A model generated the notes under the pieces. That model saw nothing but the letters and a program-made list of their open reading frames with translations. It was not told the origin of the DNA and did not search any database. Below are positions 1-7,002 of a DNA stretch of 64,000 nt, one piece after another (the first letter of the stretch is position 1; each line of letters begins with the position of its first letter). Position numbers and translations under genes: made by a program. Source of the stretch: an uncultured Fibrobacterota bacterium (GTDB lineage: Bacteria; Fibrobacterota; Chitinivibrionia; Chitinivibrionales; FEN-1185); assembly GCA_963753345.1 (NCBI GenBank), contig CAVWBU010000035.1, positions 1 to 64,000 on the forward strand, given 5' to 3'.

Positions 1-122
1 TGACCTGCCCCTGGTATGATTAGAGACAAGGCTAAAGCTACATATCTGTCCTTTTTTTCACCTCTCTTTGTGTGAACATGTTCCCTTAACTGCCGAATAG
101 TTTTGTCATCGATGTACATCAT
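1..122 (-). CDS. Small membrane protein, TM2/DUF5683-like (5' part only; runs off the window)
   Basis: AGGAGG Shine-Dalgarno then ATG at 122. It translates to MMYIDDKTIRQLREHVHTKRGEKKDRYVALALSLIIPGAG, matching the 'K..ALxLSLxxPGxG' motif. Not in the ORF track. Confidence 0.55.
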   Translation of the reverse strand, partial: MMYIDDKTIRQLREHVHTKRGEKKDRYVALALSLIIPGAG

Positions 123-251
123 AGTCAACTCCTCCTAATTCTCCCATGTATTGTTCCAGTATTGCCTTGGGCGTTGACGCGTTATTGTATAGCAAGTTCC
201 TTTACATTCACCTAAGTACATCGTAATAGACCTTTAGTTATTGTCATTCGG

Positions 252-1526
252 CTAATGTTCATAATCTTCATCTTTACAGTCAGATGCTGGACAAAGTGAT
301 CGGTTAAATGGTTTTCCGGTTAATTGAGCGTATTCTTTCTTTAGTTTTGCAATTTCGCGTTGCATTACTTGCATCTCCCTTGGCGTATCAAGTGACTGCT
401 GGTAACCACGCTGCCAAAGTTCATTTGTTCGGCTATTATGTTCACGGGACATTTGTCTGTATGTACACAAGTCCCCACAAATTTCGGAAATAAGGCCATC
501 CGGATCAGCATTCATTTGAGCTTCTTTTTCCTCTTTTGCTGCTATTTTCTCCTCATCTGTGCTATAATTATCCCTAAGCGACCTGTGCCAGAGCTTATTC
601 TTCATACCTCCAGCTGCGAAAATACTATTGTTGCTTATCGCAAAGAGTAATGCGATCATTTCTATGTTTGGAAGCCCTACACTGATTGTTTCCCAATTTG
701 TGCCATTATCGTTGGAAAGGAAAACACCATCTGTAGTTCCCGCAAAGATATTGTTGCCACTAACGACAAGAGAAAAAAGGACTCACTTGTGGGTAAGCCG
801 AAATTGACCGCAGTCCAGTTTGTACCGTTGTCGGTGAAGCGGAAAACACCATCACTAGTTCCCGCAAAAATATTGTTGCCACTAACGACAAGAGAGGCAA
901 TAATAGTATCATTTACGGATTCAGAATCGATTCCGGTCCAGCTTGTACCATTATCGTTGGAAATAAAAACACCATCATTAGTTCCTGCAAAGATATGGTT
1001 GTTGCTAATGATAAGTGTGTTAATTCTTTGATCTGCTAGACCAGTAGAGGTATAAGTCCAACTTGTGCCATTGTTGGTGGAAAGAAAGACACCACCCCCA
1101 AGAGTACCGGCGAAGATGTAAACTCCCGCTGACAGCAAGCGAAAGAATGGCAGTATTGGTGAGGCCATTATTGACCGCAGTCCAGTTTGCACCATTGTTA
1201 GTGGTTAGAAAAACGCCATTGTCACGAGTTCCAGCAAAAATGTTATTGCCATCTACCGCAAAACAAAGGACACTATTATTTCTGAGACCTGAACCAACTG
1301 CCTTCCAGCTTGTACCATTATTGATTAAGCGGAAGACACCATTATGAATAGTTCCAGCAAGAATATTGCTGCCTTTTACTCCAAGTGCCCAAACCTCGCC
1401 GCTATTCGGAACATTTATTTGTCTCCATTGAGCACTTGATGCTTGTACCAACAAAACGATCAATCCTACGTAAAGAAACAGTGATTTTTGCATAATCATT
1501 CTCCAATGGTTTCGATGGAACGTCAT
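252..1526 (-). CDS. Secreted Asp-box/BNR-type beta-propeller repeat protein, split by two frameshifts
   Basis: Signal peptide and repeats 'NIFAGT.xGVF.SxxNGTxW' continue across ORFs 1020..1526, 677..1195 and 252..659. Frameshifts at ~1120 (agttta) and ~775 (T-run) join them; ...SNDNGTNWETISVGLPNIE reads directly into MIALLFAIS. Confidence 0.75.
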
Positions 1527-1691
1527 TGTTCCTTCTCTATAGTTCTACCAGATTTGGATGGTTTATAACGCTAATTGTATTAATTAGAGCCTTTCAGTCA
1601 AATGGCTTTGCAGAGAGAAAATAGGAAGCCCTCCCGCTACCTTTGAAGAAAGTCATGGGAGCCCTAGTCTTAAGCTTTCTCGCCTGGAAAG

Positions 1692-2236
1692 CTATTTCTT
1701 GCCGTTTATATTTATTTGTCTGCATATTGCATAGACTGCCGCTATCGCAGGACCCTTGGTTGTTCCCAAAACGTCGTCAGCCATGTTGTTTATGTCATTT
1801 AGAATGTCCAGAACCAGTCCTGCTTTTTTATGGAGTTTTGTTAATGCTTTCGTAGGAATACTCTTTCCCTTATTTTTGTTTGAGCCTCCACCCTTATTTG
1901 CCATATTATCCAATATGATAATCTCCAAATCCTTTTCAGATGCATCGGCAGGAAACACTAATTCCAGATGTTCCTCAATAACCTTTATCAATATTTGTCT
2001 CCATGACAAAGCAGAAGCAAATGGATTCAGTTGTTCGAATCTATTCTCTAGTCTAGTGATGATGCCATTCAAATTGTGATCAATTATTATTTTTGCTTCA
2101 TTTTCAGCAGTACTTTCCATTTCATCAGGCCAATCAAAATTCAACGTGAGCCTAATATGTCTCTTTGCTCTTTGCTCATTGTCATTAAGGCATCAATAGG
2201 ACGGCGAAGGGTTTTCCAATCTGGCGATCCACTCAT
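1692..2236 (-). CDS. Hypothetical protein, weakly YaaW/UPF0174-like; frameshift at ~2143
   Basis: AGGAG SD with ATG at 2236 (MSGSPDWK...). Adding one T at cgt/ttg fuses it to ORF 1692..2144. 'WRQILIKVIEEHLELVFPADASEKDLEIIIL' and C-terminal 'GPAIAAVYAIC' recall YaaW. Confidence 0.45.
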
Positions 2237-2289
2237 AATGACTTCTCCTGTGAGTGCATTTCTTGAATCGGGAGACTGTGCAGGCGAGG

Positions 2290-2494
2290 AAATAAAAAAG
2301 CCCTGCCGCCAGCCTCTGATTTTCTGCGAAGAGAACCAGAGAGATGTAACACATCCATAGCTCACGACAGAGCGTTGAGCCCTGTTCAGACGGATGTGTT
2401 ACATTTCTCGATAAAACGAGATCGGTTTTAGGCAGAATATGCCCAAAACCACAGGTATCGACGTATCAATACCTGTTCACTGGTTCTCTTCGCT
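2290..2494 (-). ncRNA. Candidate structured ncRNA or 5' leader (four-way junction)
   Basis: Perfect 14-bp closing stem 2326-2339/2480-2493 encloses three hairpins (2341-2407, 2424-2450, 2451-2476). It starts ~7 nt after a consensus -10 box and ends in a U-tract. Confidence 0.6.
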
Positions 2495-2500
2495 ATTACA

Positions 2501-2529
2501 ATTATAGCTTGTCAGCGGTGATGAATCAA
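2501..2529 (-). promoter_or_regulatory. Sigma-70 promoter TTGATT-N17-TATAAT
   Basis: Minus strand reads ttgatt catcaccgctgacaagc tataat. Confidence 0.7.
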
Positions 2530-2672
2530 TAGAAATAGGGTGGAAAAAGAAGGCCGTATCAAGGAGGCGGGATTACCTACTCAGTGGTTGAATTTATGGA
2601 ACATAAAAGGAACCCCTTCAACGTAGTGTCTATGGGTCAGGTACTCCGTGGTTTGAGCAAGAGAGCAAGAAA

Positions 2673-3038
2673 ATGAGTCACAAGCTTGAAGTCGTCGTAG
2701 TCGATGATGAAGAACAAATCACTGAACTTCTCAAAACGTTCATCCTGATCGTGGGTGAGGATATATGTGTCCACACCTTTACAGATTCAACAGTCGCAAA
2801 GGATTTTGTTTTACAAAATCCAGTAGATGTGCTCATTACAGATTACAAGATGCCTCGCCTCGATGGCATGCAGCTCATGGAGTCAGCTCCTCCTGAGGTG
2901 AAAAAAATCATGATCTCGGGATATGTTTCTGAAATTGGTGAAAAGAAGCTTCAAAAACTCAATGCCATTTATTTTGAGAAACCAGTGCCTTTGCGGGCAT
3001 TGGCAAAGGTTATTTCGGAGTACCGCAAACAAATCTAA
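2673..3038 (+). CDS. Single-domain response regulator (CheY-like receiver)
   Basis: VVVVDDEE, DVLITDYKMPRLDG, ISG and KP receiver motifs. Confidence 0.9.
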   Translation: MSHKLEVVVVDDEEQITELLKTFILIVGEDICVHTFTDSTVAKDFVLQNPVDVLITDYKMPRLDGMQLMESAPPEVKKIMISGYVSEIGEKKLQKLNAIYFEKPVPLRALAKVISEYRKQI

Positions 3039-3076
3039 AGATGCGACAATCCTCGGGCTTGAGATGGAAACGATTT

Positions 3077-3112
3077 AAAAAAAAGGGAGATACTACATAA
3101 GTACCTCCCCTT
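3077..3112 (-). terminator. Rho-independent terminator
   Basis: Minus strand: GGGAGGTACT-tatgt-AGTATCTCCC followed by T8. Confidence 0.75.
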
Positions 3113-3115
3113 CCC

Positions 3116-3165
3116 TCGCTTTACTTTACGTTACTTTGCCTTACCGTACTTTACTCTACTATGCC
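3116..3165. repeat. Degenerate pentanucleotide tandem repeat (consensus TTACT)
   Basis: tcgct ttact ttacg ttact ttgcc ttacc gtact ttact ctact atgcc. Confidence 0.8.
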
Positions 3166-3554
3166 TTGATGACTCGCTAAACAGCAAAAGCTGCTCGGCA
3201 AAAACTCACCTCTCATCAAGCAAGTAAAGCAACCCCTCACGGAAACCGTGATTGGGGTTGAAAAGTAGGAGGCCTCCTTTTTGCGGAGACATGGCAGCGA
3301 GTAGGCCATGTAACTCAATTATAGCAAAAATTAATCAAAAATGCCAGCAATTTTTCTTCAAGGAAGTACGAAGAGGGGTGGAAGCCAGATCAACAAGGTT
3401 AAGGATATCGATTTAAAAAGGGAGCTGATGGGGACAGCTCCAGCCTGGTTTCTGCCAGAAAACACTTTCTTTCAAAGGGGCTTGAAAAGGGTGGAATTGG
3501 CAGTATATTATCTGGGGAAAGGGATCTCGGAAAATCTGTTTCAAAGGATAAAAT

Positions 3555-4304
3555 ATGAGAAAAATCCAATACCGTATTACTTTCTACGTTCTTTTATCTA
3601 TTTCATGGAGCTTCGGATTGTCGCCTGTTAGGGATGACTGTAAGAGTAATCTTGCCTACAATTCATATCGTGGGCACTCCACTTCAATTTCGCCTTCAAA
3701 AAAGTGGGTGTTTGAAACAGTACAATACCGATCAAACGCTTTTGCCTATTATGATTCCATACAGCTATTTCTTTTTCAATATTGTTACCCTTCCGAACAC
3801 ATTTACATGACAACCTTATTTTCCCATTCCGCAGGTGGAATGTATTTCTGGTTTCCTGGAAATGATTGGGGTGGGGCGTGGAGTCCCGGTGAAGATTCCG
3901 TCTATTTTATGGTAAATCAGTCCACAATTAATACTCCTGGTATGGGTGATACCGAAGAAGTATTCACCATGGATGTCTCGTCCATTACTGGGGGAACCTT
4001 GAATGCACCTCGATCAAGCAGTACACCGAAACTCATGAAAGTTTCCAATCACCCTAATCCTTTTTCCCGTATGACAACTATTAACTACTCCCTTCCTCAA
4101 GAAGGATTCGTTGCAATCAATATTTACAATGCGAATGGCGAATTGATCAGGGTGTTAGGACAGGAAAAGCAAGAGCAGGGAAATCATTCTACATATTGGG
4201 ACGGAAGGGATAATCTTGGCAATTCAGTAGCAACGGGTGTTTATTATTATCAAGTGATTTCCAGGGATATTATTTCTGTAAAAACAATGATAAAAACTAA
4301 ATGA
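3555..4304 (+). CDS. Secreted protein with C-terminal FlgD-Ig/T9SS-like sorting domain
   Basis: Signal peptide; C-terminus NHPNPFS..TTINYSL..IYN.NGELIR.L..G.H..WDGRD..G..VATGVYYY. Confidence 0.8.
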   Translation: MRKIQYRITFYVLLSISWSFGLSPVRDDCKSNLAYNSYRGHSTSISPSKKWVFETVQYRSNAFAYYDSIQLFLFQYCYPSEHIYMTTLFSHSAGGMYFWFPGNDWGGAWSPGEDSVYFMVNQSTINTPGMGDTEEVFTMDVSSITGGTLNAPRSSSTPKLMKVSNHPNPFSRMTTINYSLPQEGFVAINIYNANGELIRVLGQEKQEQGNHSTYWDGRDNLGNSVATGVYYYQVISRDIISVKTMIKTK

Positions 4305-4735
4305 ACAACCCATGGCACCCCTGACACATATGACATCCTGGTTGAGAAAAATGACGTGACAAAGTTGATAATCTTGGTAAAGGTTCACCGTTGTGCGCTG
4401 GAGGAATCAATGGGGCGATCCTGGAGCTTGTGGCGGTGGTTCAAGGACTGGTTCGAAGGTTATCACCAGAGCGGCGGTTCATTCGGTTTATGGGAAGATG
4501 GTTCTGAAAGTGCCGCAGTCTACAAGAAGATAAAAATACCCTTGACACCCTTGCCACCTGTGACGCCGTGATCAGGAATAGTGACGTGGCAATATTGGCA
4601 ATATGGCACTATTGGGGCCGGTAGGTGCTGGGAGGCTCTAGGGGACGATCCAGGGGCTTGTGACGATTTCTGGCGCTTAGCTACTGCTTGTTGAAAAATG
4701 TGTGTGCTGCCTAGTTCAACGGTTGATTGTTGGAA

Positions 4736-4758
4736 AAGTGTCCGGTCAAGTGTCCGGT
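4736..4758. repeat. 11-bp direct repeat AAGTGTCCGGT x2 (possible integrase arm-binding sites)
   Basis: aagtgtccggt c aagtgtccggt, about 120 bp downstream of the tRNA-Arg 3' end. Confidence 0.45.
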
Positions 4759-4824
4759 TTTACAGGGCACTTCAAGGTATTTTAGGGTATTTCGACAAAA
4801 GTAGGGTTCTTTGATACAAAAAGA

Positions 4825-4872
4825 AAAAGCCCGTTTTCCCCTATGAAAACTCATAAGGTTACGGGCTTTTTT
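4825..4872. terminator. Hairpin with flanking A/T tracts downstream of the tRNA pair
   Basis: aaaagcccgt...acgggctttt with inner stem tatga/tcata. Confidence 0.55.
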
Positions 4873-4875
4873 AAT

Positions 4876-4949
4876 CGTGCCTTGGGGGACTCGAACCTCC
4901 AACCTGCGGATTAGAAATCCGCTGCTCTGTCCAGTTGAGCTAAAGGCAC
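4876..4949 (-). tRNA. tRNA-Arg(TCT)
   Basis: GTGCCTT acceptor stem, GCGGA-TT TCT AA-TCCGC anticodon arm, GTTCGAGT T-loop. One A-C mismatch in the T-stem; no encoded CCA. Confidence 0.92.
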
Positions 4950-4959
4950 ATGTCAAGTA

Positions 4960-5034
4960 TCGGGGTGACTGGATTTGAACCAGCGACATCTTGGTCCCAA
5001 ACCAAGCGCTCTAGCCGGACTGAGCCACACCCCG
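4960..5034 (-). tRNA. tRNA-Pro(TGG)
   Basis: CGGGGTG acceptor stem, CTTGG-TT TGG GA-CCAAG anticodon arm, GTTCAAAT T-loop. Confidence 0.95.
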
Positions 5035-5084
5035 GAAGAAATCGTGAGGCGCGAATATGGTTCGGTAAAATATACATTCTGGAC

Positions 5085-5225
5085 GACGAAAATAATTTGG
5101 GCGTTCCCCTCGCTACCACGTCGGGTCGGTCCACCCCTTCGGGTGCTTCCAAGGGTCGTCCTTCCGGGCTCGGCTGTTCGCCTCGTTGCCGGACCGCCCC
5201 GATGACCTTCGGCCGGCACAAGGCA
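5085..5225. repeat. Dispersed GC-rich palindromic repeat (REP/MITE-like), related to 33495-33670
   Basis: Shares TTGGGCGTTCCCC...GGGTCGGT...CCTTCCGGnCTCGGC with the reverse complement of 33575-33670. Confidence 0.55.
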
Positions 5226-5405
5226 AGAGATACAATAATGAAGCGCGAAGCGCTATTACCACACCTTGGGGAACGAAGTGACAATTCGCTCTGGCTCACC
5301 CTGCGGTCCACCTAACGCGCGGCAACGGAATTCTATTAAGTCAATTGCTTCGTCTCGCGCCAATCGGCATCCGCAATAAATCGGCCGGGTATTCCTTTTT
5401 TTGAC

Positions 5406-5592
5406 TTTTCAACGTTTCAACTGTTCAACTATTCAACTTCTTTTACCACTGCTTTCCATGGGTGCCGCCACAACAATGCATGGTCTTGCAACTGCTTTGT
5501 CAAGGCGGTCACCCAGGAGGGGGTAGCGCAGGACACCGCAGGCCACAGGCCGAGGAGGCCGGAGCGCGGGGCGAAACTTCCCCCGCCAAGAT
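5406..5592. repeat. Composite intergenic repeat, copy 1 (octamer TTCAAC array plus GC-rich hairpin module)
   Basis: Same motif order as 6793-6993: (nnTTCAAC)x4, GGTGCC, TCTTGCAA, ACCCAnGAGGGGG, GAAACnTCCCCCGCCAA. Confidence 0.55.
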
Positions 5593-5613
5593 ATTTAGAA
5601 TTAAAGCTTAGTT

Positions 5614-6759
5614 TTAGAATGCAACTTTTACTCTCACCCCATATATCATTTCTCCATAGGGAAGAGGCAAGAGGCCATTTGCAGAAGATGGCAGGCCCTG
5701 CACATACACGATGAGGTCCGCGTTCTGCAGGATGTTGTAGGAATACTGGAGCGTGCCGACGCCGGATTTAGCGGTAATGTCGGCGATCGCGCTTGCGGAA
5801 ATATCCATGAGGTCGTTGATCTTGTAGCGCATCATGAGAAACCCGTAATGGTTGTGCGTAAGCGCGATGTTGGTCTCCAACAGGGAAAACTGCGCCGGGC
5901 CCACGGGCGTCTGGGGCCGCTCGTTGTACAGATACTCACCGGTAACGTACCATGTGTTTGCAATGGAATAATCCGCGCCGAGCATGCCCACAAAGGCCCG
6001 GTAGCCGCCGTAGTGCCAATGCTCAACGAGTTCGCCGTACACGCCGGCAACGAGGTCGCCCTTGAACGTGAGGCCGGTGATGTACTCCCGTGTGCCGCCC
6101 TGGTAAATGCCGACGCCCGCGAGGTCGAAACTTCCCGCGTGGCCGTAGCCTTTTATCGCGCCGGCCACCCCGTCGGCCCGCGAGCTCACCTTGACAAGCG
6201 CGTCAAGTCCCGCAAGGTCGCCGAACGGCACGCGCACGCGCGCCACATCGCTGCCCCTGCGGCGCAGCGACAGGTCGAGGATGTTGACCGAGGAGAACAC
6301 GTCGACGGGAGAGAACACCATGCCCTCGCCGAACGAGATGATCTGCCTGCCCAGCGACAGGTCGGCAAAGGGAAGGAACAACGCGCCGTACAGCTTGCGG
6401 ATGTCAAGCACGACCGCCGACGACGGGGAGGGGAGAACGGCGAGGGCAAAGGAAGAGTCTGCTTTGCGGAAGGCGTCGGCATACGCGCCGAGGAGCAGCC
6501 ACAGGTCGGCGCTGGCGTCGAACTTGACCACCGTAGCCTTCTCGTTCTGCGCGTTGAGCGTGAGAAGGTTTGCGCCCGCAAAGTCGAACTGGTTGCTCAG
6601 TGATTTTGTGTGATCAAACGTTTCCAGCGCGTCAATGTCGTTCTGCAGGGTGCCGAATAGAGTGATTCCCTGTTCCCGCGGCGATTGTCCCCAGGCGGCA
6701 GACATGAAAAATGGTAGAAAGATTATTAGTATAGATTTATAGAATCTTTCTTTCATCAT
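5614..6759 (-). CDS. Outer-membrane protein associated with the LolCDE-like ABC system
   Basis: Signal peptide; 'GRQ.ISFGEG.VFSPVD.F' motif; alternating beta-strands; C-terminal Phe. Confidence 0.7.
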   Translation of the reverse strand: MMKERFYKSILIIFLPFFMSAAWGQSPREQGITLFGTLQNDIDALETFDHTKSLSNQFDFAGANLLTLNAQNEKATVVKFDASADLWLLLGAYADAFRKADSSFALAVLPSPSSAVVLDIRKLYGALFLPFADLSLGRQIISFGEGMVFSPVDVFSSVNILDLSLRRRGSDVARVRVPFGDLAGLDALVKVSSRADGVAGAIKGYGHAGSFDLAGVGIYQGGTREYITGLTFKGDLVAGVYGELVEHWHYGGYRAFVGMLGADYSIANTWYVTGEYLYNERPQTPVGPAQFSLLETNIALTHNHYGFLMMRYKINDLMDISASAIADITAKSGVGTLQYSYNILQNADLIVYVQGLPSSANGLLPLPYGEMIYGVRVKVAF

Positions 6760-6792
6760 GACTCCCGATTGCCTGCTGTCATCTGTATTATC

Positions 6793-6993
6793 TATTCAAC
6801 TCTTCAATTATTCAACTTTTCAACTACTCTTCTCGGTGCCCCCGCAGCCGCAGTTTCTTTCTTGCAAACCAGCTCACTTGGGGGCTACCCACGAGGGGGT
6901 GTGGGTGCGGATCACCGGCGCCTTGTATGACGATTTACTTTGCCCGGAAGGCGCCGGAAGCCGCACCCCAGGGGGAAACCTCCCCCGCCAAAA
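6793..6993. repeat. Composite intergenic repeat, copy 2
   Basis: See 5406-5592. Confidence 0.55.
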
Positions 6994-7002
6994 TCTCTCT
7001 AT

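Follow-up and report, generated by a model that had tools for sequence, protein, structure and literature searches.

In Bacillus, the RNAs bound by TRAP (the trp leader and others) carry 9–11 GAG or UAG triplets, which the protein prefers, at distances of 2–3 nt, and the sponge RNAs of the CsrB/RsmZ type present many GGA motifs in hairpin loops, where they are bound by CsrA or RsmA. Bacteroides has neither Hfq nor CsrA, and its RNA recognition motif (RRM) protein RbpB binds the single-stranded parts of small RNAs, GibS and FopS among them; the available part of that report gives a 41-nt motif for RbpB and no pentamer motif (PMC11697453). Our study examined a candidate RNA from an uncultured Fibrobacterota bacterium that can be compared with each of these systems. 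It is read on the minus strand at positions 3077–3312 of the first 64 kb of contig CAVWBU010000035.1 (C35; hereafter the window, whose coordinates are used throughout), in a genome assembly of 4.5 Mb that is 94% complete, and it carries an array of purine-rich pentamers directly upstream of a terminator. A first-pass annotation of the window had proposed a stand-alone non-coding RNA that might serve as a TRAP-like sponge or decoy, as a sliding-register switch or as the relic of a repeat-templating RNA. We tentatively read the locus as an insulated, strain-specific, stand-alone candidate small-RNA gene in a low-GC island, a reading that we regard as quite possible, if short of probable.

Direct reading of the minus strand located every hairpin, pentamer and palindrome of the first-pass annotation, together with its terminator and the extended −10 box TGCTATAAT (3326–3318). 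The candidate body is ~236 nt long, with a start assumed at ~3311 (if TATAAT is the −10) or ~3321 (if TAATTT is) and an end at the U tract 3084–3077. Hairpin 1 (3289–3311; ACAUGGC/GCCAUGU) has 7 pairs, all Watson–Crick, and is followed by hairpin 2 (3274–3288; CUCC/GGAG), which overlaps the AGGAGGCCUCCU palindrome; the palindrome AGGAGGCCTCCT is read at ~3278–3267. Hairpin 3 (3230–3260; CAACCCC..UCACGG/CCGUGA..GGGGUUG) is GC-rich, with 13 pairs (9 GC and 4 AU). The long composite hairpin 4 (3154–3229), predicted with pair probabilities of 0.87–1.0, has GCUUUACUUGCUUGAUGA as its 5′ arm, an inner hairpin GCCGAGCAGC..GCUGUUUAGCGAG, and as its 3′ arm UCAUCAAGGCAUAGUAGAGUAAAG, which is formed by the first pentamers of the array; the arms CTTGATGA/TCATCAAG lie inside the same interval (3229–3154, minus strand). 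The degenerate (AAGUA)n array of ~10 units (3117–3166) reads, from 3166 to 3117, AGGCA TAGTA GAGTA AAGTA CGGTA AGGCA AAGTA ACGTA AAGTA AAGCG; its 5′ half is paired and its 3′ half (3137–3118) is predicted to be single-stranded. The unit closes with an intrinsic terminator (3077–3116) of 11 core pairs, or 17 where an A/G tract pairs with the U tract as well, with a loop of 5 and a tail of eight uridines (U8).

The minus strand of the 236-nt candidate folds at −96 kcal/mol, compared with −65.6 ± 4.5 kcal/mol for dinucleotide shuffles (z −6.77), and none of 200 shuffles folded as well. In a second set of shuffles z was −6.5 on the minus and −4.1 on the plus strand; the latter folds at −73.7 kcal/mol, which leaves 22 kcal/mol in favour of the minus strand. 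There are 85 predicted pairs (40 GC, 34 AU and 11 GU), with the G–U pairs shared between the inner portion of hairpin 4 and the extension of the terminator. Hairpin 1, hairpin 3 and the inner part of hairpin 4 are independent of the repeat, and z was still −5.0 when the terminator was removed and −4.3 when most of the array was removed with it. A background was taken from 236-nt windows on both strands of 51 of the 106 regions of this genome that are free of open reading frames (ORFs), giving 102 windows with a mean z of −1.4, among which z was ≤−6.5 in 2 and ≤−5 in 7. The candidate fold is thus within the top ~2% of this ORF-free background and is not unique. Similarly strong ORF-free windows of 236 nt were seen at C18:25543–25778, C21:125084–125319, C21:83312–83547 and C18:18727–18962 (z −7.0, −6.6, −6.1 and −5.4), two of the four being in the large low-GC stretch with which C18 begins, and BLAST within this genome found no sequence similarity between these windows and the candidate.

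On the minus strand the elements follow one another as terminator, promoter, RNA and terminator, with ~235 nt from the promoter-like box to the U8 terminator. The 3′ terminator folds at −22.4 kcal/mol over the last 42 nt, and at −14.8 kcal/mol for its 26-nt core. A simple terminator scan misses this element, which appears in the folds; in our reading the miss is due to the stem running into the T tract. The tail is U8 on the minus strand, whereas on the plus strand only 3 of the 9 nt that follow the stem are U; as it is good on the minus strand only, some minus-strand transcript appears to be terminated at 3077–3116. Upstream of the candidate, a second terminator-like hairpin on the same strand, GGAGCTG..CAGCTCC followed by TTTTT (3413–3441; stem 3441–3421 with 7 pairs, 5 of them GC), would insulate the candidate from minus-strand read-in. 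The putative promoter between them is sigma-70-like (3318–3347, minus strand; CTGGCA, 18 nt, TGcTATAAT), with 10 of 12 matches and a TG before the −10. This box matches an E. coli-type extended −10, and is weak by a −10 model of the organism's own, which was obtained by expectation-maximisation on 50 non-redundant tRNA upstream regions of this genome. That model converges on AGTATTTTTA with ~39 expected sites; its −10 consensus is TATTTT, the fifth position of the hexamer being T at 94%, and TAnnTTT is present in 22 of the 50 regions. The housekeeping −10 of the organism is TATTTT or TATATT, often behind TTGnnn and ~17 nt, and not TATAAT. An alternative −10, TAATTT, lies ten bases upstream of TATAAT (3328–3333, minus strand), fits the consensus better and scores 11.3 bits, a value reached by 9 of 9,732 island positions. 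The string TGNTATAAT is present 89 times in the genome. A sigma-54 reading of TGGCAT was ruled out on spacing, judged against the sigma-54 consensus. On balance, promoter evidence for the candidate RNA is moderate at best, and mediocre by the organism's own consensus.

The pentamer array was reported by Tandem Repeats Finder at 3119–3160 with period 5, 8.4 copies, 75% matches and a score of 42, which is below the default threshold of 50. Its periodicity is real and beyond chance, because a period-5 self-match scan (≥29/40) of the 4.5-Mb genome returned six places, five of them homopolymer runs, and left this array as the sole place that is not of low complexity. Read in register, its 12 units begin AGG, UAG, GAG, AAG, CGG, AGG, AAG, ACG, AAG, AAG, AGG and AGG, so that 2 of the 12 start with GAG or UAG, 6 start with NAG and all have G at the third position. 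A GTA period-5 pattern was present in at least 119 arrays of unrelated bacteria and archaea, nearly all of them plain pentanucleotide microsatellites, and GTAAA was the commonest unit in at least 8 of these. The array is best read as a decayed pentanucleotide (AAGTA)n microsatellite with a few inverted unit copies upstream. It shares with such microsatellites the period-5 tandem arrangement and the AAGTA-type unit, but has 75% matches and no more than ~2 perfect units in a row, and it forms part of a larger structured unit, in which some of it pairs with inverted copies of its own unit. Since the array is degenerate, copy-number change by slippage is unlikely, and a phase-variable simple-sequence-repeat locus was rejected on the same figures (75% matches, 8.4 copies and no long perfect run).

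The segment upstream of the array had been proposed to pair with the repeats in several registers. The perfect complementarity of GCTTTACTT to AAGTAAAGC can be read directly from the sequence. In the Boltzmann ensemble, however, GCUUUACUU (RNA positions 83–91) pairs with 151–160 in one register only (p 0.87–1.0), and for shifts of 5 or 10 nt p is ~0.00, because the helix runs on into CUUGAUGA/UCAUCAAG. The terminator stem begins only beyond the perfect partner AAGUAAAGC, with no overlap between the two; re-pairing would therefore neither alter termination nor act as an antiterminator. A sliding-register switch finds no support in this single register and in a partner that stays clear of the terminator. 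Prediction places about half of the array in base pairs, and the unpaired probability exceeds 0.7 at 3137–3131 and 3127–3120, within the ~20-nt tail directly 5′ of the terminator.

Searches for the protein partners that such an RNA might have were equally negative. Profiles for TrpBP/TRAP (PF02081), HutP (PF09021), CsrA (PF02599), Hfq (PF17209) and the reverse transcriptase (RT) domain RVT_1 (PF00078) had 0 matches in this genome, each having matched in the expected model genomes (TrpBP in Bacillus subtilis), and neither the ORF list nor Pfam, PHROG and NCBIfam showed an integrase, transposase, nuclease, toxin-like or RT-like frame in 1–4875. The genome does encode four small RRM_1 proteins. 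The TRAP-like sponge or decoy of the first-pass annotation is thus not supported, as TrpBP, HutP, CsrA and Hfq were not found, GAG or UAG starts 2 of 12 pentamers and about half of the array is predicted to be paired; nor is the relic of a repeat-templating RNA, as neither RVT_1 in the genome nor an integrase or RT-like ORF in 1–4875 was found. An Hfq-dependent small RNA, which would have a U-rich 3′ end and an internal A/U-rich site (the U8 terminator is present, the chaperone was not found), an HutP-binding RNA, which would carry spaced UAG triplets, and a retron or other RT-templating RNA were rejected on the same profile results.

The earlier proposal of a stand-alone minus-strand RNA fared better, in that a co-oriented promoter-like box, five hairpins, a U8 terminator, no credible ORF and a stronger minus-strand fold are seen. 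The anatomy, the excess of structure, the strand asymmetry, the orphan status, the island setting and the failure to find the proposed partners are results; transcription itself, the exact ends and any regulatory role are inferred. Transcription would run from ~3311–3321 to the U8 terminator at 3077 and yield an RNA of 235–245 nt. The hairpin at 3441–3413 would shield the unit from read-in, and the response-regulator gene that faces it would likewise be shielded by the strong 3′ terminator. Folding of the RNA would give a pair of small hairpins at the 5′ end, then the GC-rich hairpin 3 and the long composite hairpin 4, in which the first half of the array would be locked as the 3′ arm against upstream UACUU-type complements. 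The last ~20 nt of the array (AAAGUAACGUAAAGUAAAGCG) would then remain single-stranded just 5′ of the terminator as the presumed working surface, where the exposed tail might act as a base-pairing seed for UACUU-rich targets or be bound by one of the small RRM-type proteins, of which the genome encodes four. That an (AAGUA)n tract, half masked in a helix and half exposed, really serves as a multivalent decoy for an RRM-type protein or pairs with UACUU-rich leaders has, in our estimate, a very slight chance of being correct.

The candidate lies in a low-GC accessory island (1–4875) with 40–44% GC, compared with 55.9% for the genome, which runs off the contig end. The island stops exactly at the 3′ end of tRNA-Arg(TCT), which is adjoined by tRNA-Pro. 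Two congeners (G004 and G005) have the same tRNA pair and the gene beyond it, and carry on the island side DNA of 52–62% GC with no nucleotide or translated similarity to 1–4875. The segment 1–4875 is therefore a strain-specific accessory island that is absent from two syntenic congeners. In this genome, 68 stretches of ≥2 kb fall below ~46% GC; several are at contig ends and three have long T runs. The missing part of the island was sought at other contig ends, and the first 690 nt of the contig proved to be unique.

Several results weigh against a small-RNA gene at this locus. The candidate is an orphan among the 80 other genomes of the order and in the public collections searched. BLAST against its own genome finds only the candidate locus, the next match having an E value of 0.61 and no complementary match being better than 0.6, and the longest DNA match in 40 relatives is 37 nt. 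A single-sequence covariance model (163 nt, 56 pairs) was run over 81 genomes of the order, this one and 80 others, with stricter filters since there were more than 40 genomes; it matched only itself, in 0 of the 80. A degenerate pattern of the array with 2 mismatches allowed was found in 1 of the 80, against 2 for the reversed control, and this is chance. The exact hairpin-3 pattern had 0 matches in genome, viral and metagenome contig collections, the hairpin-4 pattern had 0 in metagenome contigs, and the array/terminator junction had 0 in viral contigs. With blastn, 3040–3560 gave no phage match and one plasmid record, over the repeat array only. Among the 4227 models of Rfam release 15, only 3 tRNAs were found in the window at gathering thresholds, and an E value of up to 10 on 2900–3700 gave 4 matches, the best with 16.6 bits against a threshold of 60. 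As no relatives were found, the fold is without covariation support, and structure is partly a by-product of inverted copies of the repeat unit. The promoter adds to this list: TATAAT scores only 3.1 bits under the organism's own −10 model, with 2,039 of ~128,000 window positions (1.6%) equal or better, and by sequence reading there is no TTG-type −35 at 17 ± 1 nt from TAATTT. Sigma-70-like sites within 2 kb numbered 6 against 3.9 ± 2.0 expected, and the promoter-like match alone is therefore near chance. Finally, ~58% of the island is taken up by five gene frames (summed over the frames taken as genes), one repeat gene is split over two frames, and pentanucleotide arrays of the kind seen here are common microsatellites.

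The low coding share and the split gene make neutral, decaying DNA plausible, and this is the main rival to a small-RNA gene. On this account the locus is intergenic island DNA, its hairpin and T tract being a terminator between the response regulator and stray minus-strand transcription, its structure a spurious product of a microsatellite with inverted copies and its TGcTATAAT a chance match in AT-rich DNA. The want of homologues in any search run, the weak promoter with a near-shuffle count of similar sites, the degraded look of the island, the ordinariness of such arrays and the equally strong folding of other ORF-free windows all agree with it. It does not readily account for three GC-rich hairpins unrelated to the repeat in 42%-GC DNA, for a z score that survives removal of terminator and array, for a U8 terminator clearly built for the minus strand, or for the second terminator-like hairpin just upstream, which gives the layout of an insulated unit; moreover, an array matched at 75% is old or constrained and not a fresh slippage product. 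We consider neutral DNA somewhat less likely than a small-RNA gene, and a serious contender. A second alternative makes the RNA (for example an antitoxin, guide-like or recombinase-associated RNA) the non-coding component of a mobile or defence module whose protein partner has been lost or is encoded past the contig end. The position of the low-GC island speaks for it, as tRNA 3′ ends are classical sites of integration; the contig ends inside the island, and a second unit of promoter, hairpins and terminator is found 600 nt away (2529–2423). However, the mobile-type frames searched for in 1–4875 and RVT_1 in the genome were not found, the candidate is single-copy and has no Rfam match, and the island genes are lineage-typical (propeller-repeat paralogues, type IX tail, response regulator) with no obvious mobile-element genes among them, which together make such a module unlikely.

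The remaining two alternatives concern what the transcript would do. As a multivalent protein decoy, its 5-nt periodic purine repeats would titrate a TRAP-like or RRM-type protein, for which the invariant G at the third position, the ~20 nt of array predicted to be single-stranded and the four RRM_1 proteins of the genome could be cited; with none of TrpBP, HutP, CsrA and Hfq found, GAG or UAG starting only 2 of 12 units, half of the array paired, no second copy or relatives found and no pentamer motif for RbpB in the available part of its report (PMC11697453), we hold this to be highly improbable. The transcript might instead be a short mRNA for a cysteine-rich peptide of 52–55 residues (MAYSLPCL...), leaderless or without a Shine–Dalgarno sequence, as a frame (3151–3318, minus strand) that counts 55 codons if it starts at TTG and 52 if it starts at the ATG at 3309 opens a few bases from the predicted start site. 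We judged this frame to be non-coding. Its ATG is paired inside hairpin 1 and it ends in the array, where, as had been noted before, all three minus-strand frames stop. Searches of Pfam, PHROG and NCBIfam gave no match for it, and phmmer against 1.84 billion representative proteins returned 2 hits with E values of 3.9e-5 and 8.5e-4, both of them patchy, with five short stretches each in unrelated proteins of 399 and 1101 aa. Such patches in long proteins do not make a small-protein family, and the conserved small ORF that the first-pass annotation had named as a counter-explanation was thus not found; a peptide mRNA appears extremely improbable.

Of 7 sequencing runs listed, none is recorded as RNA, and contigs from four DNA runs were compared with the locus. 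Over 1–7000, contigs from three peat runs covered ~3443–5082 and 5611–7000, and contigs from a sediment run covered the window in short pieces at 2040–2195, 2665–2860 and 3564–3729. None of the contigs from the four runs lay over 3043–3276 and none formed a joint across it, and this gap in cover is no evidence either way.

The genes on either side of the candidate face it in opposite manners. A receiver-only response regulator of 121 aa (2673–3038, plus strand; Pfam Response_reg, E 2.1e-12) is convergent with it and has a paralogue on C24 that is 76% identical, the paralogue and the congener copies being 71–76% identical and surrounded by other genes. Divergent from the candidate is the gene for a 249-aa protein that ends in a type IX secretion sorting tail (3555–4304, plus strand; Pfam FlgD_ig and Por_Secre_tail, TIGR04183), and no similar array was found at two loci with relatives of this protein (L017 and L018). 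Its promoter, TTGAAA-16-TATATT, was placed by a sigma-70 scan in the 3447–3509 region (plus strand). Just upstream of these −35 and −10 boxes is the motif GGTTTTCTGCCAGAAAACACTTTCTTTC, with a core palindrome TTTCTG-C-CAGAAA, which occurs at 16 further places in the genome (e.g. C14:14142, C47:143553, C27:1388, C41:163272, C32:35360 and C24:55972). By our reading of the alignment, most copies have the layout motif, ~8 nt, CTTGnn, ~17 nt, GTATATTAT, and the motif looks like a shared operator or regulon. A gene remnant in 3039–3554 was rejected, as tblastx against this genome matched only 3413–3536, which is the shared promoter motif of the neighbouring gene. Further into the island, a propeller-type repeat gene (677–1526, minus strand) with NNGTSW repeats and weak Sortilin-Vps10/BNR matches is spread over two overlapping frames, 677–1195 and 1020–1526; the split reflects a frameshift, decay into a pseudogene or a slip of the assembly within the repeat, and many paralogues, with 64–75% identity, are present on other contigs. 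The second small unit (2410–2529, minus strand) lies upstream of the response regulator, in a non-coding gap of 528 nt, and consists of TTGATT, 17 nt, TATAAT and two hairpins, with a T-rich tail after the second. An 86-nt stretch of it folds at −33 kcal/mol (z −6.0), and it is probably the first candidate of the earlier annotation.

Two further observations concern repeats in the wider genome. A GC-rich dispersed repeat lies at ~5090–5600, between tRNA-Pro and a 381-aa gene, and also at ~6790–7000. A query containing it gave 55 matches in this genome (G000), 56 in G001, 45 in G005 and 35 in G002; of the matches listed, almost every one was within ~5090–5600, and the summed depth of metagenome contigs at the repeat reached ~1,500. 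Homopolymer T/A runs of up to kilobases were seen at C16:165529–167747, C16:173545–174306, C18:146525–148164, C32:67129–67274 and C45:3225–3301, where the assembly probably contains artefacts or filled stretches.

What this work offers is mainly negative, in that the TRAP-like, switch and templating readings are unsupported and a decayed microsatellite is the best reading of the pentamers. By-products that are possibly more useful are the consensus of the organism's promoters (TTGnnn, 17 nt, TATTTT) and the palindromic upstream motif common to at least 17 promoters. If the candidate is transcribed, it would be a further orphan small RNA, carried on an island, in a type IX-secretion lineage of peat or freshwater sediment that has been little studied. 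To our knowledge, almost nothing is known of RNA regulation in that lineage, which is without the classical RNA chaperones. If the decoy or pairing reading were true, a strain-specific island could re-tune the post-transcriptional network of a host in which Hfq, CsrA and TRAP were not detected.

Compared with the systems introduced above, the candidate resembles the TRAP-binding RNAs in its purine-rich motif every ~5 nt over 50–60 nt just upstream of a terminator, but GAG or UAG occurs in 2 of its 12 units, the TrpBP gene was not found in the genome, no competing antiterminator appears in the ensemble and no gene lies downstream on the minus strand. With the CsrB/RsmZ sponges it has in common a non-coding RNA, a repeated short purine motif and a terminator, whereas its three GGA motifs are all in predicted stems and the CsrA gene was not found in the genome. 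It is like the bidirectional terminators between convergent genes in having an A tract, a hairpin (3085–3112) and a T tract 40–80 nt past the response-regulator stop (3038), and unlike them in that its T tract is good on the minus strand only and in that this strand carries no protein gene, only the 236-nt unit. The differences from GibS and FopS are that the candidate has no sequence or Rfam match to such families, is single-copy and unconserved, is known from DNA alone and has a 3′-proximal single-stranded stretch of pentamer repeats, not a 5′ seed. The candidate would share the organisation of GibS and FopS, as a putative intergenic promoter-to-terminator unit with a predicted single-stranded stretch adjoining a Rho-independent terminator, and it shares their setting, a genome with small RRM_1 proteins and no detected Hfq or CsrA. 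Taken together, this comparison suggests the locus as a candidate, unconserved example of a well-known kind, the stand-alone small RNA with an intrinsic terminator.

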